In this document: positions 7,418 to 36,227 of the stretch, in pieces | How positions within the stretch are numbered: the stretch's first letter is position 1 | Layout: every line of letters starts with the position of its first letter | Assembly (NCBI GenBank): GCA_048939245.1 | Contig: JBHLPR010000004.1 | Coordinates: 15,976-79,975, forward strand | Source: Promethearchaeota archaeon | GTDB lineage: Archaea; Asgardarchaeota; Hermodarchaeia; Hermodarchaeales; Hermodarchaeaceae | Reading direction: 5' to 3' | Length of the DNA: 64,000 nt | Position numbers and translations under genes: made by a program | The notes under the pieces: generated by a model | The model's input: only the letters and a program-made list of their open reading frames with translations | What the model was told of the DNA's origin: nothing | The model's database searches: none

Positions 7418-7479
7418 AACCAGTCGAACTCTGCCCCAGTGCAGGCGAGAGACACTGGGACAGAGCACTGTGACTGGTT
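7418..7479 (-). other. Strong RNA hairpin at the 3' end of the small-gene pair
   Basis: AACCAGTC(7418-25)/GACTGGTT(7472-79) outer stem. 13-bp inner stem 7429-41/7453-65, fully paired (one G-U) only on the minus strand. Confidence 0.7.
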
Positions 7480-7825
7480 AAGTGGCTTCATCGAGGACTA
7501 AGCTAACAAATTTACCCAATCGACCCGTGTGTTGAATAGCCTTGATCAGTCGGGCCTCGTGCGTCGACTTCTTGACAAGAAGATGATTCTCTCGGACGAC
7601 AGCGAGTTCCGTGAGAAGGTCATAGAGTCGACGTAGTTCAACTCGATCGACTTGCTCAGAAAGGCGTTCCAGGAGGCGGAACACATCGGTCATTTCAACC
7701 TTCTCGAGCTGGTCAAGTTGCTCCGTGACATTATGCGACCGCAAATAGGATCGGGCTAGTCGTAAAATTGGGTCGCTTGCGTTTTCTGTCCCTGTGGTCA
7801 CGGCAATTCCCCTCAGAGTCGCCAT
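7478..7825 (-). CDS. Small helical hypothetical protein (115 aa)
   Basis: ATG at 7825 lies 1 nt after the stop of the upstream ORF (TAA-C-ATG), preceded by GGGGGTG. Confidence 0.7.
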   Translation of the reverse strand: MATLRGIAVTTGTENASDPILRLARSYLRSHNVTEQLDQLEKVEMTDVFRLLERLSEQVDRVELRRLYDLLTELAVVRENHLLVKKSTHEARLIKAIQHTGRLGKFVSLVLDEAT

Positions 7826-7826
7826 G

Positions 7827-8090
7827 TTACGCACCCCCGATGCTGGCGACGTTAGAGATTTCTTGACCATTGGGCTCAACGCGTACGCGAACTCCGCTGG
7901 GAGTCGCTTCAACGATGACCCGACCATTAAGGCCGCAGGTATCCTTGACTAATTCTAATAGCAAGGTACCAATTGCTCCGATTTCTCGGAGGTCTTCACA
8001 TCCCGTCTTCGGGGTAATACAGAGATCAATTGGGTAGGCGTCCGTGACGCCAATCATTCGCTGGGTTTCTTCCATCAGTTCTGTAGCCAC
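7827..8090 (-). CDS. Small hypothetical protein (87 aa)
   Basis: GTG start after AGGTGGAG. Spacing suggests translational coupling to 7478..7825. Confidence 0.6.
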   Translation of the reverse strand: MATELMEETQRMIGVTDAYPIDLCITPKTGCEDLREIGAIGTLLLELVKDTCGLNGRVIVEATPSGVRVRVEPNGQEISNVASIGGA

Positions 8091-8508: not shown

Positions 8509-9945
8509 GTGGCGCGCGTGCAATCGGTGGTTGAAGTAGCAGATTTACTCTCATCATTGAAGCACAATATTCATGAAAATATGCGCCCAAGCGAAGAACT
8601 ATTCGAAATAGATCTTTTACTCGATAATCTGAAACTTTATGCAAAACGAGTGAAAGGTGTACCACTTAACGAAGAAGATCACAGGCTCCAACCGTACAAA
8701 GAATTCGATGGCATGGTTGTGACACCTCGCGAACGAACGTATAATTCGTTGTTGCGACGACTTAAGGTCATCCTTCGATTCAACATCACTTCTTATGAGA
8801 AGGTTACCCGGGATCTATTACGGGGATTAATCTCTGAAGAAGCCGATCGGATAACTGGAAGAGAAATCCGGTTAATGACGTTGCTGTATCAACGCCCCAA
8901 CACGCCGCAGGCACAAATGGTAAAAGAGTTGAATGTCAGTCTGCCTACGATACGAAAGGACATCAAGACCTTAGAAGAGAAAATTGGTTTAAGGTTTGCC
9001 AATATGGTTGACTGGGGACGGTTTAAATTACGGCATTACGGGATTTTCTTCATTACCTCAGGTGTTGAAGCATCGAAGAATCTCGCAAAGGTCCTAAATG
9101 AAGAGATGTCCACTTATTTGAGAAGAGTGAATTTTGATACAACATTTCAGAGGGGCTTTGCCGGTTTTCTGATCCCGGATCAAGGAAAACCCACACAACT
9201 CTTTTCAGAGCAAATTAAATTGTTAAGCGAAAAGTTCTTCGAAGAGCACCAGCTCCACCAAATTAAGAAATACAACCAATCGATTTGCTTTGATCATTTT
9301 GACTATGAAACCAGCACATGGATGATTGAAGGTGATGTTTCAACTCTCGGCCTTCTTAATTTTGTACGGGAAAACTGGGCGATTCTTCCAAAGCCACGAG
9401 GGTTATCCAATACTCTAGCACGTCCTTTCGATGACCTTGATTATTATCTTGCCTGTTTATTAGGTGGGGATAGTAATGCACCAATGAAGAAAATTTTAAG
9501 CAGATTAGAAGCAGTGGGAATCAAAGCACCTCGAACAACTGTATCTACACGAAAGAACCGTCTCCACAAAGAAAGGACATTGGAACCCTTTTTCACTTTT
9601 GGGACGCCACAACTCCCCTTTTTCATTACTTTTGCAATTAGATGCGAGCCACATATTGCAGAGCAGCTGGCTGTGGCTGTTGCACAAATGCCACAGGGTT
9701 TCGTGTCAATTTCGAATATGGGTTGTGTTATTAATGTGTATGTGCCCGCAAGGAGCCTCGGAACTATTCTAAATCTTCTTTCACTAACACTTGAGGAGGA
9801 GGGAGTTCATGAGGTGTGGCAGATGCAACAGTATCGCAATATGGGATCTTATGGACCTGCACGAATTGCTCATAAGTGGAATGGGTCATATTGGACCTGG
9901 TCTGAGGATGAATTCGCTCTTCCATCTTTGGGACTCGAGTTCTAA
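8509..9945 (+). CDS. Uncharacterised duplicated-wHTH protein (paralog 3)
   Basis: HTH QAQMVKELNVSLPTIRKDIKTLE. Second module FDDLDYYL...PRTTVSTRKNRL. Shares IPDQ, PKPRG and C-terminal W..W motifs with paralogs 1 and 2. Confidence 0.7.
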   Translation: MARVQSVVEVADLLSSLKHNIHENMRPSEELFEIDLLLDNLKLYAKRVKGVPLNEEDHRLQPYKEFDGMVVTPRERTYNSLLRRLKVILRFNITSYEKVTRDLLRGLISEEADRITGREIRLMTLLYQRPNTPQAQMVKELNVSLPTIRKDIKTLEEKIGLRFANMVDWGRFKLRHYGIFFITSGVEASKNLAKVLNEEMSTYLRRVNFDTTFQRGFAGFLIPDQGKPTQLFSEQIKLLSEKFFEEHQLHQIKKYNQSICFDHFDYETSTWMIEGDVSTLGLLNFVRENWAILPKPRGLSNTLARPFDDLDYYLACLLGGDSNAPMKKILSRLEAVGIKAPRTTVSTRKNRLHKERTLEPFFTFGTPQLPFFITFAIRCEPHIAEQLAVAVAQMPQGFVSISNMGCVINVYVPARSLGTILNLLSLTLEEEGVHEVWQMQQYRNMGSYGPARIAHKWNGSYWTWSEDEFALPSLGLEF

Positions 9946-10006
9946 CAATTAAATACGAAAGATATTTGTTTAGCGGAATTCAGGGTAGGAGTCCTTTCAA
10001 TATTAG

Positions 10007-11047
10007 GTGGTGCAGCGTATTAGTAGTAAATTGATAGTTCGAGAAGGCGATTTCATTGAAACCATTGAAGGGCTTATTTTTGATGTCAAGGGACTCGTGC
10101 ATCCACCGGATAGAGTTATCGCATTCTTGCGATATTATCCCTCGCCGAATGGGAAGCGAGAAAGAGATGGGCAACGTTATGATAAGGTCTATCATCTAAC
10201 TGAACGCTTCGATTATCTGCGAGAACATTATCCACACTATCTATACCATGACAAAGTATTTGGAACAGAATTGCAGAACATACCTCATTCTTTCATACGG
10301 GAAATCTTTCATCCGAAGGAACAGCTTCTTCGACTGAGAGAGCTTGAGCAACGAGACGCATTGCAGCAAGATGTGGTTACCTTTGCTGATATTATTGAGG
10401 AGAAGGCACGGGTTTCAGCTGACGCCTTGGGGATTTCTGGTAGTGTCCAAGTAAATCTTCATGGAGAGACCTCAGATATTGATTTGATCGTGTATGGTCG
10501 TCGAGAAGCACGAGCAGTACAGCTGGCATTACGCCGGGCTCATTTGATACCCGAAGAAGGAATTTCGGGGTATCGATTGGACACATACCGAACCGTCTAC
10601 AACTTACGGTGGTCAGGGACCGGTATCCCCATCGAAAAGATGCTGTTAGTTGATGGGTTGAAGTCCATGCATGGAGTATTTGGGGGGCACCACTACTTCA
10701 TTCGAGCAATACTGGATTGGGATGAGATTCAAGAGGAATATGGGGATTGCATATACGAACCGATTGGACAGGCTCGAGCCCAATGCACGATTTCTGATGA
10801 TCGTGATGGTCTATTTACTCCATGCCGTTATGAAATTGATGATGTAGTATTTTTGAAAGGAAAGAAAATTCAAGATCTGCGCGAGATAGTCAGTTTTCGG
10901 GGACGATTTGCTGAACAGGTCCGCCAAGACGAAACTGTCGTGGTGCAGGGCATGGTAGAAATAGTCAAATGTGGGAAAGAAAAGTGGGGTCGGTTCTTGT
11001 TAGGTGCTCAACCAACAGATATCTTATTACCCCGTAATGTCATTTGA
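10007..11047 (+). CDS. Archaeal Pol-beta-superfamily nucleotidyltransferase (COG1665-like)
   Basis: GISGS...SDIDLIVYG catalytic motif. N-terminal DFIET.EGL.F.V.G..HPP. Confidence 0.8.
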   Translation: MVQRISSKLIVREGDFIETIEGLIFDVKGLVHPPDRVIAFLRYYPSPNGKRERDGQRYDKVYHLTERFDYLREHYPHYLYHDKVFGTELQNIPHSFIREIFHPKEQLLRLRELEQRDALQQDVVTFADIIEEKARVSADALGISGSVQVNLHGETSDIDLIVYGRREARAVQLALRRAHLIPEEGISGYRLDTYRTVYNLRWSGTGIPIEKMLLVDGLKSMHGVFGGHHYFIRAILDWDEIQEEYGDCIYEPIGQARAQCTISDDRDGLFTPCRYEIDDVVFLKGKKIQDLREIVSFRGRFAEQVRQDETVVVQGMVEIVKCGKEKWGRFLLGAQPTDILLPRNVI

Positions 11048-11069
11048 TTAATATGCTGGTGGTTTAGGG

Positions 11070-12116
11070 GTGGCACGGCTTCCAAAAGACAAAGACTTTA
11101 TCGAAACCAAAGAGGGATTATTTTTTACTGTTGTGGGATATTTGCATCCCCCAAATGCATATACTGCATACTTGAAGTACCGTCCGGATTCAAAGGGCAA
11201 ATGGGAACGGGGAGGTGTTCGGTACCAGCGGATGATGCAAGTGTATAGTGCTGCTGAAGTGCAATCCAGCAGTAGTTGGTTACTGAAACATTTTCCTGAA
11301 TACATCAAACTTGATCCAGTACGAGGGATTAAACTGCCATTGGTTCCTTGGGAGAATACTGTTGCTTATTATTTACCTGAGGTACGAATGGCTGAGATAC
11401 TCCGCGATCCGCAAGATCCGCTGGAATCAAAGGCGAAGGCGTTGGTTACTCTGCTATCCGAAGCCAGTGGAGTTGACTTGAGCAGGTTTGGTGTTTCCGG
11501 ATCGATTCTTTTAGAAATTCATAATCCAATGTTTTCCGATATTGATTTGCTCGTGTATGGATTAGAGAATGTGCAACGTGTTCGGGATGTGATGGACGAG
11601 TTATTTGGAGAGAATAAGGTCAAGCCCTACTCAGGGGAAGAGGTTCAATCATGGCAATTGCGGCAGGTAAGGATACTGGGAGTTCCTGCTCGCTACGCAG
11701 AACAAATTGCGTGGTCACATTGGCAACGTGGACGATTTGGAAAAACAGCTTTTTCGATAGGTGCAGTTCGAATGGATGGGGAAATCATGAACCAATATGG
11801 AGCTGAAACCTATTCGCCGGTAGAAGCTGTTGAATTCACAGCCACGATTATTGAGGATGAGGAAAACCTCTTTGTGCCAGCCCGATATTTAGTGGGTGAT
11901 ATCAACATGGAGGAGGGTTATACAGAATTACCTGCGTTAACGGAAGTAATTTCATTTGAAGGAGTGTTTGCAGCAGTTTTCAACAAAGGTGACCGGGTTA
12001 GGATCCGTGGAATGGTGGAGGCGGTTCGTGACGAGAAGGAGAATATCCTTCGAAACCATGTGATTGTTGGCACCTTGTCTTCGCAGGGTTGGATTGTGCG
12101 GCTTACTTCGGCATAA
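11070..12116 (+). CDS. Archaeal Pol-beta-superfamily nucleotidyltransferase (COG1665-like), tandem paralog
   Basis: GVSGS...SDIDLLVYG and DFIETKEGLFFTVVGYLHPP. Confidence 0.8.
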   Translation: MARLPKDKDFIETKEGLFFTVVGYLHPPNAYTAYLKYRPDSKGKWERGGVRYQRMMQVYSAAEVQSSSSWLLKHFPEYIKLDPVRGIKLPLVPWENTVAYYLPEVRMAEILRDPQDPLESKAKALVTLLSEASGVDLSRFGVSGSILLEIHNPMFSDIDLLVYGLENVQRVRDVMDELFGENKVKPYSGEEVQSWQLRQVRILGVPARYAEQIAWSHWQRGRFGKTAFSIGAVRMDGEIMNQYGAETYSPVEAVEFTATIIEDEENLFVPARYLVGDINMEEGYTELPALTEVISFEGVFAAVFNKGDRVRIRGMVEAVRDEKENILRNHVIVGTLSSQGWIVRLTSA

Positions 12117-15961: not shown

Positions 15962-16070
15962 TTCCACAAGTAGCTATGCTGAAAAAATCGTAGTTTGGGC
16001 GAACCGCTTAAATGACAGAACTGCACTGTAAACCTGCACCCTATGTTAGGTGCTAAATGAGGTTTACACT

Positions 16071-17468
16071 ATGACGACCAAAGATACCGATGCAATCCTC
16101 TCTACCCCGCGATCACGAATTACAAAGCATGTCATTTGTCCGTTTTGCGGTTGCCTCTGTGATGATATCGAAGTTGCAGTAACCTTAACTGGTCCTCTCC
16201 CTCGTGTTCCGGAAGGAACGATTGTAGAAGCATTAAATGCCTGTCGTATTGGACATACCAAATTCCTGAAGGTGCGAGATGAGTATCGGATTTACAAACC
16301 TGAAATACGGTCAGGGAAGGATAAATCGCAAATTAAACAGGTGTCCTTAGAGGAAGCTGTGAAAGTCGCGGCCAAAATCCTTGCCAATGCAAAACGTCCA
16401 GTGATTTATGGATTAGCAAGCACCTCCAATGAGGCAAATGTGAAGGCCTTAGAGCTTGCAGAGGTTTCAGGTGCAGTCGTCGACAATACTTCTTCGGTGT
16501 GCCATGGCCCAGGAATTGAAGCCACGCAACGTGTTGGGATTGGCACCTGTACTCTGGGTAAAATCAAAAACTATTCGGATCTGATTGTTTATTGGGGTTG
16601 TAATCCGATTGCGGCGCATCCACGGCATACACGACGGTATTCACAATTTATTGAAGGCTTATTCCAACAGGTGGAAGATCGGAAGGTCTATCATATCGAT
16701 GCCCGTCCCACACGATTCACTGATCAGGTTACAAATTCGATTATCGTTGAACCGAACAAGGATTATGAACTGCTGCAGGCAGTCCGAGCACTTCTGCGAG
16801 GCAAAGAGCTACAAGCCTCCGAAGTAGCCGGGGTCCCAATGCGACAAATTCGGGAGTTTACGAACGATCTCAAAAGTGCCAAATTTACCACTATTTTCTT
16901 TGGATTGGGATTAACCCAGACCCACGGAAAAGACCACAATGTAACGGCAGCTATCGATTTAACCGCAGATTTGAATCATCACACAAAAGCAGTGATTATG
17001 CCCTTGCGAGGGCACTTTAACGTTACCGGTTCGAATCATGTATCTACATGGACTTACGGTTACCCCTTTTGTATAAGCCTGGAGCATGGAGCCCCTTACT
17101 ATATGCCCGGAGAAACGAGTGCAGTTGACGTGTTAGTCCGGGGTGAAGCGGATGCCTTCTTTGCTATCGCAGCGGATCCCGCGGCTTCATTTCCTATGCC
17201 CGCTGTGAAAGAAATGATGAAAATCCCTGTGATTGTTTTGGATCCTAAGCGTTGTGCCACAACTGAGATCGCTGATGTTGTTCTCCCTTCAGCATATGTG
17301 GGCATTGAAGCAGATGGAGTGCAAACCGCGTATCGAATGGATGGAATTCCCCTTCAATTAGACAAAATCGTTGATGCACCTGCAGGCATCAAAAGTGATG
17401 ACCAGATTCTCGATATGATTGTTCGTGAGGTTTGCAAGCTCAAGAAGATCAAACGTTACCCGGAATAA
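16071..17468 (+). CDS. fwdB: Formylmethanofuran dehydrogenase subunit B
   Basis: CPFCGCLCDDI, DNTSSVCHGP (Cys ligand), WGCNP..AHPRH..RYS, MPLRGHFNV, AYRMD. Confidence 0.95.
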   Translation: MTTKDTDAILSTPRSRITKHVICPFCGCLCDDIEVAVTLTGPLPRVPEGTIVEALNACRIGHTKFLKVRDEYRIYKPEIRSGKDKSQIKQVSLEEAVKVAAKILANAKRPVIYGLASTSNEANVKALELAEVSGAVVDNTSSVCHGPGIEATQRVGIGTCTLGKIKNYSDLIVYWGCNPIAAHPRHTRRYSQFIEGLFQQVEDRKVYHIDARPTRFTDQVTNSIIVEPNKDYELLQAVRALLRGKELQASEVAGVPMRQIREFTNDLKSAKFTTIFFGLGLTQTHGKDHNVTAAIDLTADLNHHTKAVIMPLRGHFNVTGSNHVSTWTYGYPFCISLEHGAPYYMPGETSAVDVLVRGEADAFFAIAADPAASFPMPAVKEMMKIPVIVLDPKRCATTEIADVVLPSAYVGIEADGVQTAYRMDGIPLQLDKIVDAPAGIKSDDQILDMIVREVCKLKKIKRYPE

Positions 17469-18983: not shown

Positions 18984-19409
18984 CTATTGCTGCAAACCTT
19001 TGACATCAATTTTGAGTTTGGATGCAATATTCGCAATGAAATAGGATACTGCGTAGGGAAGGGCATTGTATTCCTCCTGAAATCCTTCGAAGCTGAGGGA
19101 GGCTATTCCCTCATGACCGATGACTCCAACGGCTCCTTGGTCAGTAATGAAGTATTTGATTTCAGCTAGTTGTCCATTTGCCTCGAGAAGGCTCTTGTAT
19201 AATTTTGATTTATCAATACTCTTCAAATCATCAACTTCAACGATTATGATAAAAAATCGCACCCATTTATCGCTGCGGTCAATAATGAGCAGGAAACGGC
19301 GATCGTCAATAGTATAGGGAAGAACGATTCGATCTTCAGCAGGAATGACACGATAGGTCAGATTCATTTCTTTAAGATAGCTTTCAATTGTCTCCATTGT
19401 TTTGGTCAT
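18984..19409 (-). CDS. YbjN-like (T3SS-chaperone fold) protein
   Basis: LY..LL.ANG.LAEIKYFI motif; size about 140 aa; paralog of the next gene. Confidence 0.65.
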   Translation of the reverse strand: MTKTMETIESYLKEMNLTYRVIPAEDRIVLPYTIDDRRFLLIIDRSDKWVRFFIIIVEVDDLKSIDKSKLYKSLLEANGQLAEIKYFITDQGAVGVIGHEGIASLSFEGFQEEYNALPYAVSYFIANIASKLKIDVKGLQQ

Positions 19410-19489
19410 ACTCGTTACCTCCAATGGAGTGAACCATCAAGGTTTCAGGCTAATAAAACGTTGCTTCGTTCGTTAAATTTCAGTCTAGC

Positions 19490-19954
19490 CTAGGAGTAGA
19501 AGGAAAGTTCGTCCTTGGTTGGTAACTTTAAGTGCAGATTCAATTTTTTTGCGATAACAGTGAGAAAATAGGTTATCCCATATGGAATAGCTCGAAATTC
19601 TTCGCGAAAGCCGTCCACCGTAAGTACCTTGACTCCTTCGTGTCCAACAATCCCCACGTCACCTTTCTCTGTGATGAAGTATTTGACCTCTGCAAGGTGC
19701 CCATTTGCCTTCAAAAGCTCCTGGTAAAGCTCTGTCCGTTTCTTCTCACTCGATATTCTTTCTGCTAGCATTATCAATACCCAAAACCGCAGAAACTGAC
19801 CTGAAACATCGATTATCACATTGAATTTCAAAGAATCCTTTGGCACAGAATAGGGAACCGTAATGCGATGAATCTCACCATTCACTGGTATCACCTCATA
19901 AGAGAGATTCATCGATTTTAGATAAGTCATAACACGGTCGAGGATTTCGGACAT
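19490..19954 (-). CDS. YbjN-like (T3SS-chaperone fold) protein, tandem paralog
   Basis: LYQELLKANGHLAEVKYFITEKGDVGIVGHEG is near-identical to the segment in 18984..19409. Confidence 0.65.
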   Translation of the reverse strand: MSEILDRVMTYLKSMNLSYEVIPVNGEIHRITVPYSVPKDSLKFNVIIDVSGQFLRFWVLIMLAERISSEKKRTELYQELLKANGHLAEVKYFITEKGDVGIVGHEGVKVLTVDGFREEFRAIPYGITYFLTVIAKKLNLHLKLPTKDELSFYS

Positions 19955-25241: not shown

Positions 25242-26072
25242 TTAGCCGATGATATGCGGTAAAGGTGTGATCATGAGGAAATACCAAATAAAGAAGCTAG
25301 TCAAGAAAAGACTTGTTAGGACGATAAGCCAGTCCTTTTCGACAAAGTCAGGGAAGGCGAGGAATGTTCGATTCGGGGCATAGCCAAAGCCTCGCCCATC
25401 CATGGCTAGAGTGAGGGCATCAACACGCCCCAATGCTGAAAATATGAGCGGCATGAAGGTATATTTAATTTGACGAAGGAATCCTCGAATAAGCCCTTGA
25501 TCAACAGGAATCCCCCGTGCCCGTTGGGCAGATTGAACGGTATTTGATTCTTCGTCAAAAAGGGGAACTAATCGTAAGGCGAGGACGAGAGTATACGCAT
25601 ATCGGTAGGGAATTCTAAGTTGGGTCAAGGCAGCGGCGAAGCGACTGGGATCGGTGGTGGCGACGAATAAGGCGCTTGCTGAAACGATGTTTATGAGACG
25701 AAATGCCAGATTGATGGTATTGGCGAATCCTAGGATAGTTATTGGGAAAAAAGGACCGAAGCCAGGTGCAAGGGGTGGTATAAGATGGAAGAGAACTGTC
25801 CCATAGGGTGTGAAGAGAAGTTGGACAAGTGCAATGAGAAGGATGAAGGTTAGGAGCCGTCGAAGTCGCCCAAAGGCGTAGCGTAGATTGATACCGGCAC
25901 CAATGTAGCCGAGGAGAAGAAAACCAAAGATACACAGGGAAATAATGTCGGAGACCAAGGTTACTGTGAGAATCACAATTAGGATTAAGACTGCGAATTT
26001 TGTCAAAGGGTTTAAACGGTGAACAAAGGAGTTCCGTTGAAGGTAGCCAAAGGAGGAAGTGCGCATCATCAT
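25242..26072 (-). CDS. ecfT: ECF transporter transmembrane T component
   Basis: HRLNPLTK, LALRLVP, AQRARG, AMDGRGF motifs. Confidence 0.92.
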   Translation of the reverse strand: MMMRTSSFGYLQRNSFVHRLNPLTKFAVLILIVILTVTLVSDIISLCIFGFLLLGYIGAGINLRYAFGRLRRLLTFILLIALVQLLFTPYGTVLFHLIPPLAPGFGPFFPITILGFANTINLAFRLINIVSASALFVATTDPSRFAAALTQLRIPYRYAYTLVLALRLVPLFDEESNTVQSAQRARGIPVDQGLIRGFLRQIKYTFMPLIFSALGRVDALTLAMDGRGFGYAPNRTFLAFPDFVEKDWLIVLTSLFLTSFFIWYFLMITPLPHIIG

Positions 26073-27652
26073 TTTTCAGAACCACCCTCCGTATTCGTTG
26101 CTCTGTGTCTTGGTTTTGTTTGTTCGAGCGTGGCAGTATATTCTAGGCCTTGTTTGACAGGGGCATCGATGAGTAGTTGACCATCAAAGAGGAATAATAG
26201 CCGTTGACAGTATGTTTCAGCGATAGCTGTGTCATGGGTAGCAATCAAAATGGTCGTACCTTGTAGAGCTTCTTGTTGAAGAACCGTCATCAAGCGATGA
26301 ACGTTGCGATAATCTTGTCCAATGAAGGGTTCATCCAAGAGGAGGAGTTGTGGGTTATGGAGCATAATGGAGGCGATGGTTAGGCGACGTTGTTCCCCTA
26401 AGCTTAGGGTATACGGTGACTGATCTTCGTAATCTAGAAGCTCAAAGATTTCTAGCAACTCCTTAGCTCGTTTTGATGCAGCTTGAGGCTCTGGAACCCC
26501 AAGATGTTTTGAAGCCAGAAGAACCTCTTCTTTTACAGTGGACGCAAAAAGTTGGTGAAGGGGATTTTGAAAAATGAAACCAATGTCGCGAGCTAGCTTC
26601 GAAACGGGTTGTTCATGGACATTTTGGTTTCTCAAATGAACTGTTCCCGAATCCGGTGTAAGAAGTCCCATGAGCTGAAATAAGAGGGTTGATTTTCCTG
26701 AGCCATTAGCTCCCATTAATGCGACCATTTCTCCTGGACGAAAAGACAGGGTAAGATGTTGAAGCGCTGGTTGGGTAAGCGATTTCTCTTCCATTTGCGG
26801 ATAAGTGAAGCTGAGATTTCGAATTTCTAAAAGGTTCTCTTCTGAGAGTTTCGTGGCTGATGACCTGTCTGAGTATGCGGATGGATGAAGAGCTACTCCC
26901 AAGTCCGTGAGTTTTTTGGATTGAGTTGAAAGCAGGTCTGAGGAGCCATCAAATGTAATCCAGCCTTTGTTCATAAGCAATATACGAGATGCAATTTTGA
27001 GAAAGGGTTGGATTCGATGTTCAATGACAAGGATTGTGATGCCTTGTTGATGGAGTTTTTGCATGACCTTGATGAGTTCGCTTGTGGTTTGAAAATCAAG
27101 TCTGGCTATTGGTTCATCAAAGATAAGAATAGGTGGTTGGAGCGCTAAAAAGGAGGCGATGACGACCTTCTGTTTTTCACCTCCTGAGAGGGTGTGAGTA
27201 TTACGGTTGTGAAGGTTTTCTGCATTAATTGCATTTAATGCCCAGCCAATTTGAGTTGCTATTGTCTCAGGAGGGTGCTGGAAGTTTTCAAGGCCAAAGG
27301 CGATTTCATTTGATACTTTGAGGGTGACAAGTTGGCTGTCAGGATCTTGTTGTATAAGGCTAATAGATTGGGCTAGGTGGGGAATGGAGTTGGATTTGGT
27401 GTCTTGATTTGCGATGCTAACAGTTCCCTCGAATTGACCGGGGTATTCATTGGGGATGAAGCCCGTTAAACAGCGGGCAAATGTGCTTTTTCCACTTCCA
27501 CTGGGTCCGGCAATAATGACGAATTCCCCTGCGAAGACGTCTAGATTGATTTCGTGGAGGGCTGGTAATTTATTGCCTTCGTAGGTGTATGTTAAATTAG
27601 AGATATGAATGAGGGGATCTTGTGAATTGATTGGGTTATTAGGTGATGACAA
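26069..27652 (-). CDS. ECF transporter fused double ATPase (A-A')
   Basis: Two ABC domains: GPSGSGKS/LSGGEKQ/FDEP and GANGSGKS/LSLGEQ/LDEP. TTG start inferred; the ORF is open from 27715. Confidence 0.9.
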   Translation of the reverse strand: MSSPNNPINSQDPLIHISNLTYTYEGNKLPALHEINLDVFAGEFVIIAGPSGSGKSTFARCLTGFIPNEYPGQFEGTVSIANQDTKSNSIPHLAQSISLIQQDPDSQLVTLKVSNEIAFGLENFQHPPETIATQIGWALNAINAENLHNRNTHTLSGGEKQKVVIASFLALQPPILIFDEPIARLDFQTTSELIKVMQKLHQQGITILVIEHRIQPFLKIASRILLMNKGWITFDGSSDLLSTQSKKLTDLGVALHPSAYSDRSSATKLSEENLLEIRNLSFTYPQMEEKSLTQPALQHLTLSFRPGEMVALMGANGSGKSTLLFQLMGLLTPDSGTVHLRNQNVHEQPVSKLARDIGFIFQNPLHQLFASTVKEEVLLASKHLGVPEPQAASKRAKELLEIFELLDYEDQSPYTLSLGEQRRLTIASIMLHNPQLLLLDEPFIGQDYRNVHRLMTVLQQEALQGTTILIATHDTAIAETYCQRLLFLFDGQLLIDAPVKQGLEYTATLEQTKPRHRATNTEGGSEK

Positions 27653-28694
27653 GGCTGACGACCTTCTCCACCCAATACCATCCTGGGTAATTCTTCGCCA
27701 CAAGCCTGAGTCCATCCTCGATTATTAGGATAATTTCATTATCACTTAATACCTCTTCGAGGGAGAATATTGTACTATAGCCATCTGAAGCCACTACCTG
27801 AAGTGTGGTAGCAGATTCTAATGGTTGAGCATCAACAAGGATTATGGCTATTGGAACACCGGTGTAATTTTGTGCGGGAAGTTGTGTTACGGATCCAATG
27901 AGTTGAGCTTCGAAGGTAACCTCCTGATCCACATAGGTGGAGTATGAAAAACGAAATGGTTGTGCTACTTGACCAACAATTTCACAGCTGTGTGGATCAA
28001 TAGTAGGTTGCCATACAAAGACCGTATAAAGACTGGCACCGAAAGCAAGAATAATGAGAAAAATGAGGGCTGAAAGTCGATAAGGTCCTAGACGCCGCCA
28101 AATTGATCCTTTTGCTGTCACACGTGGACCATTAATTGCTGTGCGGTAGATACTGGATTCCAAGACGAGTTGCGTTGTTGTATATCCGAAATAGCCACTG
28201 AAAATAACGCCCGATGAAAAAGCTAGAATAACTAAGAGGGCGAGGAATATCAGAGGTGCCCCTGAAAAGAAGAATAATTGGAAAATAATAACATTAGATG
28301 CGGAAGCAAACCCTCCGATGATCGACTGCAGCAGTAATGAATCTCGTTGCCCAATTGCGTAGAATCCGATGTCGATTATTAGCCCTTGAATAAGGCTGAC
28401 TAAAACGACAATTATTCCATGGGTACTTCCAGTGAAGAGCTCGACAAATCCTTTCAGCAGACCTGTGGCGGTTGCCGCCCCTGCTTTTCGGGTAAGCCCC
28501 AATGCTAAGACAAGCCAAAATACATGGAGACCACTAAGAAACTGTCCAGCTCCGAAAGGGGTTCCGATGGCAGTATTCAAGAGAAGACCGAGATAACCAA
28601 TAAAGGTGCTTAAAACCCCCCCGAGTGCACTTAATACCGCGATAGTAACTAAATCGCGAGTCCCAAAATAATAGGAAGGTTGGGAATCAGTCAT
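27639..28694 (-). CDS. ECF S-component (YkoE/ABC_cobalt-like) fused to a C-terminal molybdopterin-binding-like (Oxidored_molyb) domain
   Basis: RDLVTIAVLSA (AxxxA), KAGAA...G.VE. C-terminal YTGVP...ASDGYS..F...LRLV....GWYWVEKV. Confidence 0.78.
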   Translation of the reverse strand: MTDSQPSYYFGTRDLVTIAVLSALGGVLSTFIGYLGLLLNTAIGTPFGAGQFLSGLHVFWLVLALGLTRKAGAATATGLLKGFVELFTGSTHGIIVVLVSLIQGLIIDIGFYAIGQRDSLLLQSIIGGFASASNVIIFQLFFFSGAPLIFLALLVILAFSSGVIFSGYFGYTTTQLVLESSIYRTAINGPRVTAKGSIWRRLGPYRLSALIFLIILAFGASLYTVFVWQPTIDPHSCEIVGQVAQPFRFSYSTYVDQEVTFEAQLIGSVTQLPAQNYTGVPIAIILVDAQPLESATTLQVVASDGYSTIFSLEEVLSDNEIILIIEDGLRLVAKNYPGWYWVEKVVSLVIT

Positions 28695-28715
28695 GTGTTC
28701 ACCTTACATGGTTAG

Positions 28716-29828
28716 CTACGGAGGAAAACTATCTCGAACAATTTCAATTATGGAGACATATTTTACCCACCGTGCACTCGCTGAACCGGAGAACCAAGAT
28801 GGATGGGTGGTTTGACTAGCATCCGTATTGCTATAGCCTCCATCCGGTGCGAGAAAGACGAGCTGTGGACCATAATCCCAGGCAGGAACAATGTCCCCGT
28901 TGTAACTATAAGCAAATATTAGATCGCCTTGAATCGCTTTTATCGAGCTGTTTGGATAAAGGTTGTAATAGGCAAATAATTGATAGTAACCGTCGTTTGC
29001 AGTCACATTGACAAAATCATTATCATCGATTATTGTTACTAGTTCAAGAATGGCGGAAAACGGAACACCGATATAAGTGCCATTACCTCCCCAGCTCCCA
29101 GTATATTTTTGGTAAGCAGAATAGCCTTCAAGACTATCCATCAACGCAAGATCCACCAGATACACCTTGTACTCCTCATCACCATCGATTATCGTAAAGT
29201 GTAAAGATCCACCAACGTAGACATCTTGGAGTATTTCGATGGATGCCACGTTGGAAACCCAACGCGCCCCCGCACTCCCCGAGAACCAAGCAGGATGGGT
29301 CGTCTGAGCGGCATCATCATTACTATACGCTCCGTCATCGGGGAGAAATGCAATTCGGGGCCCATCCTCCCAATCTGTTGGCGTGGTGCTGTTATACGAA
29401 TATGCTAAAATCAAATCACCTTGCACCGGCGCAAAGGACGCATTCGGATACAGGTTATAATAAGCAAAATATTGGATATAACCATCCGTGGCATTTACTC
29501 GAATTACATCATTCGTGTCTATTCCACCAACAAGTTCAACGATAGAAGATATTGTTACTCCAACATAGGTTCCACTGCCTTGCCAATTCTCAAATCGATT
29601 CTGATAAGAGGAATCACCTTCTGTGGGTGTTAGGGTGAGTAGTGTTGAATAATTGAGGTTGATTATGGTATCTCCATTGATAACTTGAACATCGACATCA
29701 GCTGCAGGCGGTTGGAAGGAGGGGGGAGAAGTCAGAATTCTAATTCCAACGATAGCGCCAGCCGCTACAACGATTGCAACAAGAACAATTACTACACCAT
29801 ATTTGAGATTTTGGTGAGATTCTGTCAT
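28716..29828 (-). CDS. Membrane-anchored protein with two tandem molybdopterin-binding-like domains
   Basis: N-terminal TM/signal segment. Internal repeat G.GTY.GV...DGY.Q.FAYYNLYPN...LI.AYSYN...GP...ARWV. Confidence 0.75.
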   Translation of the reverse strand: MTESHQNLKYGVVIVLVAIVVAAGAIVGIRILTSPPSFQPPAADVDVQVINGDTIINLNYSTLLTLTPTEGDSSYQNRFENWQGSGTYVGVTISSIVELVGGIDTNDVIRVNATDGYIQYFAYYNLYPNASFAPVQGDLILAYSYNSTTPTDWEDGPRIAFLPDDGAYSNDDAAQTTHPAWFSGSAGARWVSNVASIEILQDVYVGGSLHFTIIDGDEEYKVYLVDLALMDSLEGYSAYQKYTGSWGGNGTYIGVPFSAILELVTIIDDNDFVNVTANDGYYQLFAYYNLYPNSSIKAIQGDLIFAYSYNGDIVPAWDYGPQLVFLAPDGGYSNTDASQTTHPSWFSGSASARWVKYVSIIEIVRDSFPP

Positions 29829-29863
29829 GGTTGAAGACCTTCATCGCTTTAAGAAATTGTTAA

Positions 29864-29885
29864 GATATGCATATTCGTGCATATC
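29864..29885. promoter_or_regulatory. Palindromic operator upstream of the ECF operon
   Basis: GATATGCA-TATTCG-TGCATATC, a perfect 8-bp inverted repeat 35 bp upstream of the start codon. Confidence 0.65.
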
Positions 29886-29969
29886 ATCTTTGTTATTAAG
29901 CCTTACGCTGCAATATATTCAGAAATAAAAGAGGAGGGAAGACACCGACTTCGAAGAGCAGCGTATTTG

Positions 29970-30992: not shown

Positions 30993-31184
30993 GTATATTT
31001 CCCCTGCTCGATTACGAGCGTTATCTCACCTCAGGGTATCTGCGTATAAGGCTTACGTTTTCAACCAAATATTAAAGGATGCTGAGAAATTCGGAACGGC
31101 AGAACGCTTAATTAGCTGTACCGCAGTAATCCGATGTATCTGCCCGAAGCAGGAGCGCATCCCATCAACCCCTGGTGCAATAAC

Positions 31185-32894
31185 GTGAAACCCCAAAGTA
31201 TGCTTATCAAAAATGGCTTTGTCATTGACCCCAAGAACGAGATTTTCGAAGTCAAGGATCTAGCTATACAAGACGGAAAAGTGGTGGAATCCGTTAAACC
31301 GGAATCAGCGGAAATAATTGATGCAGAAGGACGCATGGTCGTCCCCGGTGGTGTAGAAATTCATGCCCATTTGGCAACACCGAAAGTTGATTCTGGTCGG
31401 GTTCTTCGATGTGATCAATCACGAATGGACCCATATACCTATTCAGATATCTGCCGAGCGGGAGTTTGGGCAAGTGTTCCTCCAACCTTCATGACTGGAT
31501 ACAAATATTCACAAATGGGCTATACCTTCGTTACCGAAGCAGCTTCTGCAGGATTGGTAGCTAGGCACACGCACGAAGAACTTGCTGAAATCCAACCACA
31601 TGACAAAATCATGTTCCCACTTTTTGGCAACTATCAACTCATCATGGACTATTCCCGAGAAAAGGAGTATGAGAAGCTTGCAGGATTCGTGGCATGGATG
31701 CTTGCAGCTACAAAGGGCTATGCTATCAAAGCCGTCAATCCTACAGGAGTTTGTGACTGGTCTTGGGGTGGTAATGTTGAGAACCTCGATGAACCAATTG
31801 CCTGCTTTGACGTTACTCCTCGTGATGCGGTAACCGCTTTACTTGAAGGTGCTGAGAGACTTGTCCTGCCGCACTCACTTCATCTACACGCGAATATGCT
31901 CGGTCGTCCAGGAAATATGGATATTACGATTGAGACCATGGAACTTGCGAGTAATCGCCCAGCAACGAAACGTGCTTCAGGGCACAATCTCCATATGACA
32001 CACATCCAATTCCATGCTTATGGTGGAGATAGCTTCATCACTTTCAAGAGCGCAGCAGAACCCATCGCCAAATACATCAAAAGTCACAAGAACATCAGTT
32101 GCGACTTAGGACAAGTTGTCTTCGCAGATACCACAACCATGACTGCGGATGGCCCGTGGGAATGGATTCTTCGTGGCATCTCAGGAAGCCGGTGGGTGAA
32201 TGATGACATTGAAGTTGAGTGTGGCGGAGGAGTCGTACCTTACGTTTTTAGAAAAAGCTCACGAGTCAATTCGATCCAATGGGGTATCGGACTCGAAATT
32301 GCACTTATGGTCAATGACCCATGGCGGGTTATCCCAAGTACGGATCATCCCAACGCTGGAACCTTCATCAATTATCCATCAATCGCCGCCTGGTTGATGA
32401 GCAAGAAAGCCCGGGAAGCGGTCTTAGCTGAAATTAGAGGCTCAGCTAAGAAGCGGATGGACCTTCCTGCTCTCGAAAATGAATGGACTATGAATGAATA
32501 TATTATCTCTACTCGAGCAGGACCAGCACGAATTCTGGGATTACCCAATAAGGGACATCTTGGGGTGGGAGCTGATGCTGATGTCGCGTTTTATGATTTA
32601 GATCCCAAGGAAGATTATGCTAATAATCCGGATAAACTAATTCGTGGATTTTCGCAAGCATGGATGACCATCAAAGATGGCCGTATTGTTCAGAAAGCTG
32701 GCAAAATGGTTGCCACACCAAAAGGGAGCACTTATTGGGTTGATGCCCAAGTTGAACCAGAACTGGCAAAGGAAGTCGAGAAAGATATTCGAGAGAAATT
32801 CATGAGCTCCTATACGATTTCCTATGAGAATTACCCTGTATCCAAACGATATCTTCACCGGTCTGCCCCTGTCAAACTCGAAGGAGCCAGCTAA
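31185..32894 (+). CDS. fwdA: Formylmethanofuran dehydrogenase subunit A
   Basis: LIKNG.V.DP, GGVE.HAH, GYAIKAVNP, HSLHLH, THIQFH.YGG, STDHPN, GHLGVGADADVA. Start may be 31200. Confidence 0.95.
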   Translation: MKPQSMLIKNGFVIDPKNEIFEVKDLAIQDGKVVESVKPESAEIIDAEGRMVVPGGVEIHAHLATPKVDSGRVLRCDQSRMDPYTYSDICRAGVWASVPPTFMTGYKYSQMGYTFVTEAASAGLVARHTHEELAEIQPHDKIMFPLFGNYQLIMDYSREKEYEKLAGFVAWMLAATKGYAIKAVNPTGVCDWSWGGNVENLDEPIACFDVTPRDAVTALLEGAERLVLPHSLHLHANMLGRPGNMDITIETMELASNRPATKRASGHNLHMTHIQFHAYGGDSFITFKSAAEPIAKYIKSHKNISCDLGQVVFADTTTMTADGPWEWILRGISGSRWVNDDIEVECGGGVVPYVFRKSSRVNSIQWGIGLEIALMVNDPWRVIPSTDHPNAGTFINYPSIAAWLMSKKAREAVLAEIRGSAKKRMDLPALENEWTMNEYIISTRAGPARILGLPNKGHLGVGADADVAFYDLDPKEDYANNPDKLIRGFSQAWMTIKDGRIVQKAGKMVATPKGSTYWVDAQVEPELAKEVEKDIREKFMSSYTISYENYPVSKRYLHRSAPVKLEGAS

Positions 32895-32993: not shown

Positions 32994-35900
32994 ATGACCA
33001 AAGTTCGAGACTTCACACCAGCCGATGCAGCCGGGTTAGCAAAGTGCATTAACGAAAGTGAAGGAGGATGGCCAGGTGGTATCTCCGGAGGGTTAGACCA
33101 CACTGCAGAACATATTCTCGAAGACTATAAGCGGGAAGCGAAGCTAGCTTGGTTAATCGCAGTCTCCGATGAACAGCAAATTGCTGGTATTTCTACATTA
33201 CACCCCCACTTTGACGATCCTGCAGCAGCATATCTTGGATTTCTCACGGTTTCTGATGCCTATCGGAAAAAGGGATTTGGCAAAGCGCTCCTGGTAGAAT
33301 CGGTGAATCGGGTCATCGCTGAAGGATATAAACGGCTTTTCTTACATACATGGGGGGGCAATCTCAACGCGGTACCAGTCTATAAGCGCACAGGTTTCTT
33401 CTGGTGCCCCGAAACCCAAGTACTCATGGAGAACTATATTCCCACCATTATCACCTTACCGATTGCCAGACCCTTTTTCAAGAAGCATGACTGGTATGAG
33501 ACCTATATCAGGCAAATTGAAATCAAGCCTGATGAAATGAAACATCGTGGGCTTAATGTCTATGAGTACCGATGGGAGAAAGGCGACGAATTTCTTAGAG
33601 TGGTAATCGACCGAGAGAGCCGAGGACCCACTCTGATCGAAAACAGGCAGGTTCTAATAGAATGCTGGGTCGCAGATGCAGAGCCAACGCTCGGGCTGCC
33701 AATACCAGTTAGCTGGTCAATCCAGAATAAGAACCCGAACAAGCCACTCACTTGTCACCTGAAAGTTAAACTACCTAAAGGCTTCCAGTTAATTGAAGCA
33801 CCAGCTTCCTCAATTATGGTCCCGGCAAAAGAAACAGTTGTTCTTGAGGGGATAATTCGGGGAAGCGTGAATGTGATTCCACCTCCAAAGGAAAGACCCG
33901 CATTAGCCATTGTAAGCCAATTGTTATTAGAAAAAAGACCTGTAAAGCTTGAGACCGGGATAAGAGCCCAGCATCCAATCGAATTGACCACTGTGCCTCC
34001 ATCAATTTGGTGTCGAGCAGGCACACGATTCTCGATTCCCATCTCAATCAAGAGTAACCTAAAGAAAACCGCAACGGGACGGTTAATCATTCGAAAACCT
34101 CGGGGACTCCAAATAGACCAGAAGCAATTTGAAATTAGACTCAACCCAGAAAGACATTCTGGAATCGAATTAAATGTAGCAACTAAGTCTTCATTAGGCA
34201 GCATAGCATTACCCATCAAGTTGCAGGCTCAGTTAGATGTTGGAGGACAACAACTGAAGACCCGAACCGAAACAATTTTCGTTCACAATCTGAGCCAAGG
34301 CGGAGTCCTGGTTACACCTGCGCAGGATGACAAGCGTCTTCAAGTTCACACTGAAACCTTGCAGTTTTCTATTAATTTAGTAAAAGGCGCCCACATCGAT
34401 AAACTTACCAACCGCCTTACCGGTCGAGTCCAACTTCGCTCACATTGCCGAGAAAGTATTGGTCCACCCTTCTGGCCTTCAGAACAGATGCGCACTCACT
34501 TTAAGCACCGAATCGAAAAACCCAATGACGGAACCACACGAATAGTTACATGGATGACCTCCAAACGCTACTCGGGCCTAGTCTTTTCCAAGACATACAT
34601 CATTACAGGTAACTCATCTGTTCTCGGCATTGAATATATGTTTGAAAATACTGATCCGAAAAAAACCTACAAAATACAACTTATCGTGGGGAGTATTCCC
34701 GGTGCTTGGGATCACCTTCATGTCCTCCCCCTAAAAACAGGTTTACTTCGTGAAGAATATATCGAAGAAGAATTTTTTGCATCAGAACGTGAAATACTAA
34801 AAAGGCGGGAAGACTGGGCTGAAACCTGGTATTGCGCAGAACGCCCCCACAAAGGGGAAATCACAGCAGTACTATGTCCTCCTTCACTCTTTTATGAAGC
34901 AAGAGGAGTAACGTTCATTGATTTTCAGCTGCAGATCCCTCCTATCCCCCCAAAGAAGAAAATCATTCTACCGCCTTTATATCTCGTTGCAGGATTAGGC
35001 AGTTGGAAACATATCAGAAGACTTTGGCATCACTATTATTCCGATGAACCCGAAAGAGCCCTCCTTACAAGAATGGAACCCAATCCAGCGATTGATCTTC
35101 GAATAAAAGATAATCCAATGCTTCATGAAGTTGCTTCAGAGATTACGATTCCTTTGCAACTCCATCATCACGTGCATCGCCCTCTAAAGGGAAGCCTCCA
35201 GTTCTCAGCACCAAAGGGTTGGCGAGTGACACCTCGAACCCATAAATTCGAGCATGTCAAAGATAGCAAACCATTGTCGGTTCCAATCCAACTCCATGCC
35301 AATGCAAAGGCTAAACATGAACCCCAAATACTATCAGTGACTGCTCATGTCAAAACTGACCTTCAAACCAGAGAATTTAACGTCCCAATTATTCTACACC
35401 GAAAAACAGGAAAAGTATCAATCATTCAAGCAGTTGAGCATAACCAAAAAATTTGGATAATCGATAATGGAAAATATCTACTGAAGATTGCGCCTAGTTT
35501 CGCAGGAAGTGTATTTGCTTGGATTAAGAAGGAGACCGGTACAAACTATTTAGTATCTAATTTTCCAACCGCCGGACCCAAGGTTTGGTTTAATCCATGG
35601 TATGGGGGTATCCAATTTGAGCCCTTTGCTAGTGACCAACCTGGATGGTTTCCTACAAAACTTGATCGCGAGAAATGGACCCTTACTAAAAGTCAGCGCA
35701 ATGACTGGCAAGGAATCCAAGTGAGTGTGGTTCCGGACAAGGAAGAGCGTAGACTTCGGGATCTGAAACTGGGATTTCATGTTCTAACTCAACCACAAAG
35801 TAATATCGTAGCACTCATCGGTCAGATACAGAATCAATCTAAAGCGCCACGTCAACTGTACCACCGATTTCGAATTGCCATACCGTCAGATGAAACGACG

Positions 35901-36227
35901 CCCAAATTAGAAACGGTAATTCCCCGGTCCACAACAACCTACTGGCGAAATCGGGTGAAAACTCATGCATGGCCAACAGCCGCATACCCCTATCTTGGTA
36001 TAGAACACGGACCAGATGATGCTACACTCATATTCACTCAAAACATGAATCCCATGACGGAACTTTTTATGGGAGATTTGAACTCCGAACTAGTCTTTAT
36101 TCAAAGCGAAGATCCCATTGATGTTAGTCCCAATGAACTCGTCGAACGAACTGGGTTTCTTGTTGCCACCCAGGCACCTTGGGAACAAGCAAAGACCTAT
36201 AGTCTACTCTCAAAACTTTCTCTCTAA
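32994..36227 (+). CDS. Large GNAT N-acetyltransferase fused to beta-rich domains (1077 aa)
   Basis: YRKKGFGKAL acetyl-CoA motif, LHTWGGN..AVP.Y.RTGFFW. Remainder appears to be beta-sandwich repeats. Confidence 0.75.
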   Translation: MTKVRDFTPADAAGLAKCINESEGGWPGGISGGLDHTAEHILEDYKREAKLAWLIAVSDEQQIAGISTLHPHFDDPAAAYLGFLTVSDAYRKKGFGKALLVESVNRVIAEGYKRLFLHTWGGNLNAVPVYKRTGFFWCPETQVLMENYIPTIITLPIARPFFKKHDWYETYIRQIEIKPDEMKHRGLNVYEYRWEKGDEFLRVVIDRESRGPTLIENRQVLIECWVADAEPTLGLPIPVSWSIQNKNPNKPLTCHLKVKLPKGFQLIEAPASSIMVPAKETVVLEGIIRGSVNVIPPPKERPALAIVSQLLLEKRPVKLETGIRAQHPIELTTVPPSIWCRAGTRFSIPISIKSNLKKTATGRLIIRKPRGLQIDQKQFEIRLNPERHSGIELNVATKSSLGSIALPIKLQAQLDVGGQQLKTRTETIFVHNLSQGGVLVTPAQDDKRLQVHTETLQFSINLVKGAHIDKLTNRLTGRVQLRSHCRESIGPPFWPSEQMRTHFKHRIEKPNDGTTRIVTWMTSKRYSGLVFSKTYIITGNSSVLGIEYMFENTDPKKTYKIQLIVGSIPGAWDHLHVLPLKTGLLREEYIEEEFFASEREILKRREDWAETWYCAERPHKGEITAVLCPPSLFYEARGVTFIDFQLQIPPIPPKKKIILPPLYLVAGLGSWKHIRRLWHHYYSDEPERALLTRMEPNPAIDLRIKDNPMLHEVASEITIPLQLHHHVHRPLKGSLQFSAPKGWRVTPRTHKFEHVKDSKPLSVPIQLHANAKAKHEPQILSVTAHVKTDLQTREFNVPIILHRKTGKVSIIQAVEHNQKIWIIDNGKYLLKIAPSFAGSVFAWIKKETGTNYLVSNFPTAGPKVWFNPWYGGIQFEPFASDQPGWFPTKLDREKWTLTKSQRNDWQGIQVSVVPDKEERRLRDLKLGFHVLTQPQSNIVALIGQIQNQSKAPRQLYHRFRIAIPSDETTPKLETVIPRSTTTYWRNRVKTHAWPTAAYPYLGIEHGPDDATLIFTQNMNPMTELFMGDLNSELVFIQSEDPIDVSPNELVERTGFLVATQAPWEQAKTYSLLSKLSL

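Follow-up and report, generated by a model that had tools for sequence, protein, structure and literature searches.

We propose that the four minus-strand genes at positions 25242–29885 of the 64-kb window (the whole stretch of DNA analysed, from a member of the Hermodarchaeia) encode an ECF transporter which, with a probability of roughly 0.8, takes up finished molybdenum/tungsten (Mo/W) cofactor from outside the cell, allowing loss of its synthesis. An earlier note on this DNA had suggested that non-catalytic SUOX-fold capture domains feed an S-component in the salvage of a Mo/W-pterin, and this suggestion is supported by the fold of the domains, by the mutual exclusion of the transporter and the moa genes, by a ModE-type operator and by Moco riboswitches.

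The gene calls bear out the four-gene operon described in that note. The first gene (28716–29828, minus strand) encodes an anchored protein of 370 aa (PF00174; predicted model pLDDT 89.7) with an N-terminal membrane anchor (helix 4–33), seven N-glycosylation sequons and, as had been claimed, no Cys anywhere in its translation; a role as surface capture protein is predicted. The second (27639–28694, minus strand; PF09819, E 2e-21) encodes an S-component fusion of 351 aa, in which a six-helix core (aa 12–179) is followed by a basic linker, a seventh transmembrane (TM) helix (aa 198–227) and a SUOX-fold domain (aa ~232–351). The third (26069–27652, minus strand) encodes a fused double ECF ATPase (A-A′) scoring above cut-off for TIGR04520/04521; its longest ORF extends to 27715, and the likely TTG start yields a protein of 527 aa, like the homologues, and a 14-nt overlap with the S gene. 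The fourth (25242–26072, minus strand) encodes the EcfT coupling component of the CbiQ family (PF02361, E 6e-29). As one cluster encodes S, T and a pair of ATPase domains, the arrangement of group-I ECF systems, the cassette is predicted to be a group-I importer capable of ATP-driven uptake. Where contigs allow, homologous loci also contain S (79/80), ATPase (77/80) and T (65/80).

The six-helix S core seen in the model is, on profile and fold, of the YkoE family (PF09819; 5EDL, E 3e-13, TM-score 0.78), and the cassette shares with YkoEDC of Bacillus subtilis the group-I layout, a dedicated S-component, a double ATPase and a T component. This match and the automatic annotations would suggest import of thiamine or HMP, and the phosphatase and kinase found at many homologous loci form a pair that is common in vitamin salvage. 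Import of these compounds, or of a corrinoid, nevertheless seems to us scarcely credible. No TPP or cobalamin riboswitch was found in the 23 loci scanned, Moco riboswitches occurring instead, so that the corrinoid alternative raised earlier is not supported; and carriage of the cassette does not track thiamine synthesis, since thiC is missing whether or not the cassette is present (0/58). The cassette also departs from YkoEDC in the seventh TM helix and external SUOX-fold domain of its S-component, in the added anchored tandem-domain protein, and in having a ModE-type box or Moco riboswitch where YkoEDC has a TPP riboswitch.

The cassette contains three SUOX-fold domains: repeat 1 (aa 43–205; 29214–29702, minus strand) and repeat 2 (aa 206–368; 28725–29213, minus strand) of the anchored protein, which are 53% identical to one another, and the domain tethered to the S-component (27642–28004, minus strand). 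A single-sequence search against PDB sequences gave nothing useful, profiles and folds being required, and the protein atlas returned only hypothetical and PF00174 clusters. By Foldseek, VIA and profiles the SUOX fold, a pterin-binding fold, is secure: PruR, SorA, SoxC and YedY were matched and, for the anchored protein, PF00174 was above cut-off. The closest structural match was PruR (Z 15.1, rmsd 2.9, 137 residues aligned), followed by SoxC, SorA, SorT, nitrate reductase, sulfite oxidase and YedY (Z 9.2–13.2), and the domain profile matched SorA with E 6e-13. Invariant residues are Asn77, Tyr88 and Asp115 in repeat 1 and Leu265, Gly267, Tyr277, DGY 304–306 and Trp341 in the tethered domain, and repeat 2 has Lys241, DGY 279–281 and Trp354.

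The absence of the Mo-ligating Cys, noted before, holds. Asn77, conserved in 50 of 50 homologues, is by alignment offset no more than about a residue away from the SorA ligand, which we take to be Cys104; repeat 2 has Lys241 at the equivalent site (Asn in 28/50 homologues). Asn, Lys or Gly stands at about this position in these domains, and the single Cys of the S fusion (Cys237) lies ahead of the hairpin and is not conserved. The domains thus have the Moco-domain core fold and motifs of the sulfite oxidase family (SorA, SoxC, SorT, YedY/MsrP; PF00174) but neither its Mo-ligating Cys, nor the long post-Cys insertion of SorA, nor a dimerization or haem partner domain, and judged by these absences they are predicted not to be enzymes.

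PruR is itself a pterin-binding, Cys-less SUOX-fold protein (PMC11194511), and its structures (7KP2, 7KOM, 7RKB, 7KOS) show a small extracytoplasmic domain of the same kind; the conserved DGY and late Trp are, at the level of sequence, plausible equivalents of PruR N102, Y104 and W160, which provide the Tyr/Trp sandwich and the Asn contact to the pterin ring. That PruR binds monapterin and neopterin, and not Moco, together with the methanopterin-related genes of the window, would favour an importer of simple pterins or methanopterin-related compounds built on PruR-like domains. We regard this as very unlikely, as it leaves the moa exclusion, the operator shared with moa and tup genes and the Moco riboswitches unexplained. 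Moreover, where the enzymes have Cys, PruR has a Trp within a Pro-Trp motif that is absent from the cassette domains, which are membrane-tethered, repeated and linked to an importer, whereas PruR signals to the cyclase DcpA; the gene that follows the domain proteins here encodes an ECF S-component, not a DcpA-type cyclase or sensor kinase.

The distribution of the cassette argues for cofactor uptake. Among 301 Asgard genomes the fused transporter is present in 75 and moaC in 126, and none has both; six genera hold both carrier and moaC states, and the family containing the Thorarchaeota comprises 44 carriers and 23 moaC genomes (n=72). A split form of the transporter occurs in 42 further, Lokiarchaeia genomes, four of them with moaC, bringing the genomes with either form to 117, and about 49 overlaps in total would be expected for the two forms if the genes were distributed independently. 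The sample consists mostly of MAGs of 75–99% completeness, and Fisher p-values overstate the association because such genomes are incomplete and kin are not independent. The clients are retained: AORs occur in 296 of the 301 genomes, and the present genome has eight, in addition to FwdB and MobA. A gene survey of this genome found no tupA/B, moaB, moeA, MOSC, moaC, MOT or MoaA orthologue and no convincing ModA/WtpA match. MoaA-like matches in carriers proved to be other radical SAM proteins (<100 bits versus 318), and absence of moaE was dismissed as a marker, two synthesizing congeners also lacking it and having a MOSC protein. The genes that flank the cassette elsewhere adjoin one another in G007, a congeneric non-carrier, and the cassette is therefore truly absent there.

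The moeA gene is absent from 76 of 77 carriers (17/17 family carriers and 59/60 others), from which we infer that the imported cofactor is metal-loaded, a deduction in which we place much the same confidence as in uptake itself. Alternatively, the cassette might import MPT, dephospho-MPT or cPMP as a precursor without metal; the metal would then enter separately and be inserted by an unrecognized route that bypasses MoeA. Loss of moaA and moaC, the operator, the riboswitch and the lack of a metal-binding Cys would all fit such a route, as would the phosphoesterase motif that the domain-cluster protein has in 51 of 63 loci outside the Hermodarchaeia (no such fusion was seen in Hermodarchaeia operons) and the RIO/APH-like kinase of 35 loci. 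We consider it unlikely, given the loss of moeA, the absence of tupA from 32 of 33 carriers (present in one, versus 24 of 25 moaC-positive genomes) and, in this genome, the lack of moaB, MOSC, MOT and a convincing ModA/WtpA. In the case for cofactor uptake, however, the absences of tup and of moa genes do not count as independent evidence, as the two sets are clustered together in these archaea and were lost in a single event. The kinase itself proved not to be specific to carriers, being present also in the non-carriers G007 and G014 and in most of the Lokiarchaeia family f9.

The exclusion of tupA in archaea might suggest that the cassette imports tungstate or molybdate in place of TupABC, and ModE boxes and Moco riboswitches typically govern oxyanion transporters. 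Free metal, however, would be useless without MoaA, MoaC and MoeA, all missing in carriers; two loci (L091 and L095) have the cassette co-transcribed with an intact tupABC; and the domains share a pterin-binding fold. An oxyanion substrate is thus very improbable. Uptake of finished cofactor need not replace synthesis: moaC is kept in 14 of 14 Bacillota carriers and in 4 of 35 archaeal carriers tested, so the cassette is not obligatory for salvage, and since 62 of the 301 genomes, nearly all with AORs, have neither moaC nor either form of the transporter, other routes or undetected homologues exist.

Regulation points in the same direction. The palindrome GATATGCA-N6-TGCATATC (29864–29885), 35 bp ahead of the first ATG of the anchored-protein gene, is, as claimed earlier, a perfect 8-6-8 inverted repeat; its perfection was dismissed as evidence, as this genome contains 63 such repeats. 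Fourteen further upstream regions from Hermodarchaeia keep it with at most one mismatch, as does one more locus (L056). A matrix to which the site itself contributed gives it 31 bits, and the second-best site in the genome 14. The proven archaeal ModE box of Methanosarcina acetivorans is RTTATGT-N8-RCATAAY (PMC12327845), likewise a 22-bp palindrome of identical spacing; the window operator, a probable variant of it, differs at 3 of 14 positions, and one homologous locus (L099) matches it exactly. The operator lies about 30–80 bp ahead of the operon at many loci of Thorarchaeota and Thermoplasmata and at one of the Bacillota (L093). In G007 and G014 its sole genome-wide match heads moaB-moeA-MOSC-moaA-moaC, and in another genome (G026) a match precedes tupA. 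A putative BRE/TATA element (29893–29906, minus strand), spotted by eye, lies directly upstream, which suggests that the operator is near the transcription start, and similar AAGGCTTAA-type elements occur in several relatives. The candidate repressor is a protein of 130 aa, encoded on contig C70 of this genome, in which the DNA-binding domain of ModE stands alone.

In Bacillota homologues the operon begins with a Moco riboswitch (RF01055) at four loci (L102, L107, L109 and L117), as do the tupABC-ECF operons of L091 and L095; these switches belong to the same riboswitch class as that described previously (PMC2408646). Of the regulatory elements for which the earlier note had proposed a search, a site resembling the ModE box was thus found, with Moco riboswitches besides, and no B12 riboswitch in the loci scanned. 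The targets described in these two reports (PMC12327845; PMC2408646) comprise ABC transporters for molybdate/tungstate and for iron, together with enzymes and genes of synthesis; in the passages covered, no ECF importer was found among them.

Our working hypothesis, held only a little less firmly than uptake itself, is that the cassette is a dedicated prokaryotic importer for the intact Mo/W-pterin cofactor, accompanied by a phosphoesterase/kinase salvage step. The substrate would be W- or Mo-MPT, possibly in the bis-pterin form, such as W-bis-MPT held by the paired domains. The anchored two-domain protein may bind the labile cofactor from other cells in anoxic sediment and shield it. Without a Cys–metal bond, binding would be reversible and the cofactor could be handed to the domain tethered by the seventh helix, to be moved inward by the six-helix core, driven by EcfT and A-A′. 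It would then be loaded into the eight AORs and, via MobA, into FwdB, and the ModE-type protein would repress the operon when cofactor is sufficient. In other lineages, the phosphoesterase fused to capture domains may trim a nucleotide or phosphate outside the cell and the kinase may restore phosphate inside. Against the hypothesis stand the instability of free Moco (PMC7849362) and its failure to explain how bis-MPT for AOR is assembled without MoeA.

In a survey, some 300 prokaryotes were found to have molybdoenzymes while lacking the pathway for synthesis, the cause being left open (PMC6147048), and the importer offers a testable explanation for at least some of these 'orphan molybdoprotein' genomes. 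If the hypothesis is correct, a large share of the Asgard archaea and some Thermoplasmata are cofactor auxotrophs relying on neighbours, a specific cross-feeding need is predicted, ECF transporters gain a new substrate class and architecture, and the phosphoesterase/kinase step is an undescribed form of salvage. Caenorhabditis elegans acquires Moco from its diet and is the only organism described with both routes, according to the same paper (PMC7849362); as is proposed for the carriers, it can draw finished cofactor from other organisms and needs no synthesis enzymes to do so. No transporter is known for the worm, whereas a concrete prokaryotic transporter is proposed here. The literature covered on ECF with molybdopterin, on Moco riboswitches and salvage and on Asgard cofactor synthesis describes no such system, and neither the exclusion pattern nor the shared operator was found in the papers searched; in these, uptake of finished cofactor is described as a way of life for the worm and not for microbes. 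The split form is present as a whole cluster in Ca. Lokiarchaeum ossiferum and also in a single-contig Lokiarchaeia genome without moaC and moeA, and Promethearchaeum syntrophicum has an S-component homologue. Ca. L. ossiferum and P. syntrophicum have both been grown in culture, and supplied cofactor might therefore help cultivation. The domains could also act as reversible cofactor stabilizers.

The fwd and mobA genes to which the earlier note drew attention are all in the window, but the adjacency of fwdA (31134–32894) to the operon was rejected as weak evidence because it is limited to the Hermodarchaeia and fwdA stays when the cassette is absent. FwdB (16050–17468, plus strand), a Mo/W-bis-pterin-dinucleotide enzyme encoded outside the operon, is a probable client of the imported cofactor, and fwdD is also present. 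The MobA-like nucleotidyltransferase (956–1597, minus strand), likewise outside the operon, corresponds to a step that follows metal insertion and has been kept. The methanopterin-related genes of the window comprise an mptN-like ligase and fwd.

All four genes of the ECF operon described in the earlier note were found as described, on the minus strand (25242-29828) of contig C16 of the source genome, which spans 2.5 Mb, is 88% complete and has nearest relatives labelled Hermodarchaeota or Promethearchaeota. The anchored protein (370 aa) indeed contains two tandem repeats, with 53% mutual identity, and no Cys, and bears seven N-glycosylation sequons; that of a close relative, P0001 (532 aa; L040), has three repeats. 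In the S-component fusion (351 aa) a core of six helices is followed by a basic linker, another helix (the seventh) and a C-terminal domain, a layout which, from the usual S-component topology, implies that the C-terminal domain lies outside the cell. The double ATPase most likely starts, by comparison with its relatives, at a TTG at 27652, giving the matching length of 527 aa; EcfT is the fourth gene, and the palindrome lies before the first, at 29864-29885. In anatomy the predicted product is an ECF transporter, and its sequence relates it to YkoE.

The proposal that the repeated domains adopt the sulfite-oxidase (SUOX) fold is borne out by AlphaFold models (pLDDT 89.7 and 82.0) and by a domain profile. 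Structurally, the anchored-protein repeat comes closest to PruR, a protein that binds pterins (Z 15.1; 137 residues at rmsd 2.9), and next to SoxC, SorA, SorT, nitrate reductase, sulfite oxidase and YedY (Z 9-13), with unrelated folds beginning only at Z 5.6; in the S-component model the core matches YkoE and the tail SUOX proteins. With a profile built from twelve domain copies, the E-values were 6e-13 for SorA and 2e-5 for PruR. The Mo ligand of SorA, which we take to be Cys104, corresponds to Asn77 within about one residue (the offset deriving from aligned segments and that assumed position); Asn77 is invariant in 50 homologues, and repeat 2 has Asn or Lys at the equivalent site. PruR shares the Cys-less SUOX fold but has Trp in place of the Cys, and binds small pterins (PMC11194511). 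The domains share the SUOX fold without being enzymes, and they resemble PruR without being PruR; by analogy their non-catalytic pterin-binding use would have a precedent in that protein, though not within an importer. Import of a simple pterin, a reading on which the small ligands of PruR bear, seems highly improbable.

A further 15 Hermodarchaeia loci have the palindrome conserved before the operon, and it occurs once per genome in five genomes searched, in which a reversed control pattern had zero occurrences. In the non-carriers G007 and G014 its sole site immediately precedes moaB-moeA-MOSC-moaA-moaC, and tupABC-modE lies upstream of it. A variant precedes tupA in the Lokiarchaeia genome G026, and variants stand just ahead of the ECF operon in many loci of Thorarchaeota and Thermoplasmata, in Bacillota L093 and L117, and in Harpocratesius. 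The archaeal ModE box RTTATGT-N8-RCATAAY, proven by EMSA (PMC12327845), has the same length and spacing; three positions differ in the window, and the match is exact in L099. On contig C70 the source genome encodes a 130-aa protein with the ModE DNA-binding domain only (L131:6775-7167, minus strand), divergent from a RIO/APH-like kinase (7324-8076, plus strand), a pair also present in L149 and L150; these are a candidate operator regulator and a candidate cofactor kinase. In four Bacillota loci the ECF operon, and in two a joint tupABC-ECF operon, is led by a Moco riboswitch; the scan of 23 loci gave no TPP, cobalamin or FMN switch. Despite the sequence kinship of its S-component with YkoE, the operon failed a test for thiamine-type regulation, and import of thiamine or a corrinoid is scarcely credible. 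Another Moco riboswitch (L084:13248-14031) precedes a 178-aa hydrophobic protein that by eye resembles an S-component, a second one unrelated to the first; the gene after it is by eye xanthine-oxidase-family-like.

The source genome encodes eight AORs (six with the GR-G-G pterin-binding motif), FwdB and MobA, yet a search of this 88% complete genome found no moaC, moeA, moaB, MOSC, tupA/B or MoaA orthologue. Within its family neither moaC nor moeA occurs in any of the 17 carriers, and both are present in the sole two non-carriers; in one of these, G007, fwdA, DUF389 and sdaB are contiguous, so that the cassette is truly absent. Among 301 Asgard genomes at least 75% complete, 296 of which have AOR, 75 carry the fused form (S-component and SUOX-fold domain in one protein) and 126 carry moaC, with no overlap, and six genera hold both states. 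Counting also the split form, 4 of 117 carriers have moaC, against about 49 expected if independent, although these counts take in related genomes and kin are not independent. Absence of moeA extends to 59 of 60 further fused-form carriers, and tupA was present in 1 of 33 carriers versus 24 of 25 moaC genomes; since tup and moa share one cluster, their joint loss is a single event. The single-contig genomes G257, G285 and Thermoplasmata-like G072 agree with this pattern. Within one set, moaC is kept in 14/14 Bacillota carriers and 4/35 archaeal carriers. Neither moaC nor either ECF form occurs in 62 of the 301 genomes; families f4 (28/30) and f26 (10/10) have several AORs with none of these found, and for them a different salvage route or a remoter homologue is likely. 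Synthesising congeners gave no MoaE match but have a gene for a MOSC domain within the moa operon (L120:11863-12330; L122:13081-13542), and a conserved, unannotated 356-aa gene follows moaC.

We consider it probable (about 80%) that the operon imports a metal-loaded molybdopterin (Mo/W) cofactor, because it is regulated like Mo/W-cofactor genes, replaces the synthesis and metal-uptake cluster, and has pterin-binding folds. The earlier note had left the cargo as a Mo/W pterin or a corrinoid; fold, exclusion with synthesis genes, operator and Moco riboswitch favour the former, and the latter is unsupported, with no cobalamin switch in the 23 loci scanned. Metal-loaded MPT is the most likely species since the metal insertase MoeA and the tungstate transporter are missing from carriers, which keep MobA and client enzymes, and the AORs make the tungsten form probable. 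On the same gene content a metal-free precursor is very unlikely as cargo, and we give next to no weight to an oxyanion. The cofactor would be captured outside by the anchored domains and handed between domains, the missing Cys perhaps allowing its release; more speculatively, paired domains might accommodate a bis-pterin cofactor, which would explain AOR maturation without MoeA. Such import would be new for prokaryotes: no description of a prokaryotic Moco/Wco importer turned up in our literature search, the Moco transport pathway has been called unknown (Warnhoff et al., PMC7849362), and orphan molybdoproteins in some 300 prokaryotes have been listed as unexplained (Peng et al., PMC6147048).

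The same gene order (capture protein, S fusion, ATPase, T) is shared by loci of Hermodarchaeia, Thorarchaeota, Heimdallarchaeota, Thermoplasmata and Bacillota. Beyond Hermodarchaeia, fusion of a calcineurin-like phosphoesterase to a capture domain is usual (motif count 51/63 loci), with membrane-anchored fusions at L067:6520-8007, L119:6448-8004 and many others, and a RIO/APH-like kinase adjoins the operon in 35 loci (L119:3531-4307 and 34 others). Both may act in the cofactor pathway, where the phosphoesterase might cleave MGD/MCD or dephosphorylate MPT. This small kinase family, which has no name, goes with Mo/W-cofactor loci: in Thorarchaeota, Thermoplasmata and Bacillota it adjoins the ECF operon, and in Lokiarchaeia it lies close to moa clusters (further loci L143:13713-14555, L152:8677-9489). 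The split form of Lokiarchaeia encodes the S core in one gene and the TM-plus-domain part in another, as in Ca. Harpocratesius repetitus (a single 4.36-Mb contig) and Ca. Lokiarchaeum ossiferum, whose cluster also contains the kinase; for P. syntrophicum an S-component is on record. Between the domain genes of the split operon is a gene for a secreted protein with a weak match to EB_dh, of haem-binding type (L140:11318-12265; L152:6442-7374). Very large surface proteins (1100-1500 aa) with the same Cys-less domain adjoin the operon (L084:1060-5574; L091:12668-17053; L072; L110:3204-6509), some with their own Moco riboswitch upstream.

Elsewhere in the window, three ORFs (478, 346 and 348 aa; 8509-12116, plus strand) upstream of fwdD had no NCBIfam match at 1e-8, and two tandem, mutually similar proteins of about 150 aa (18984-19954, minus strand) are by eye YbjN-type chaperone-like. 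Conserved beside fwdA in Hermodarchaeia is a 1077-aa protein (32994-36227, plus strand) with a GNAT domain at its N terminus, the long rest being unannotated.
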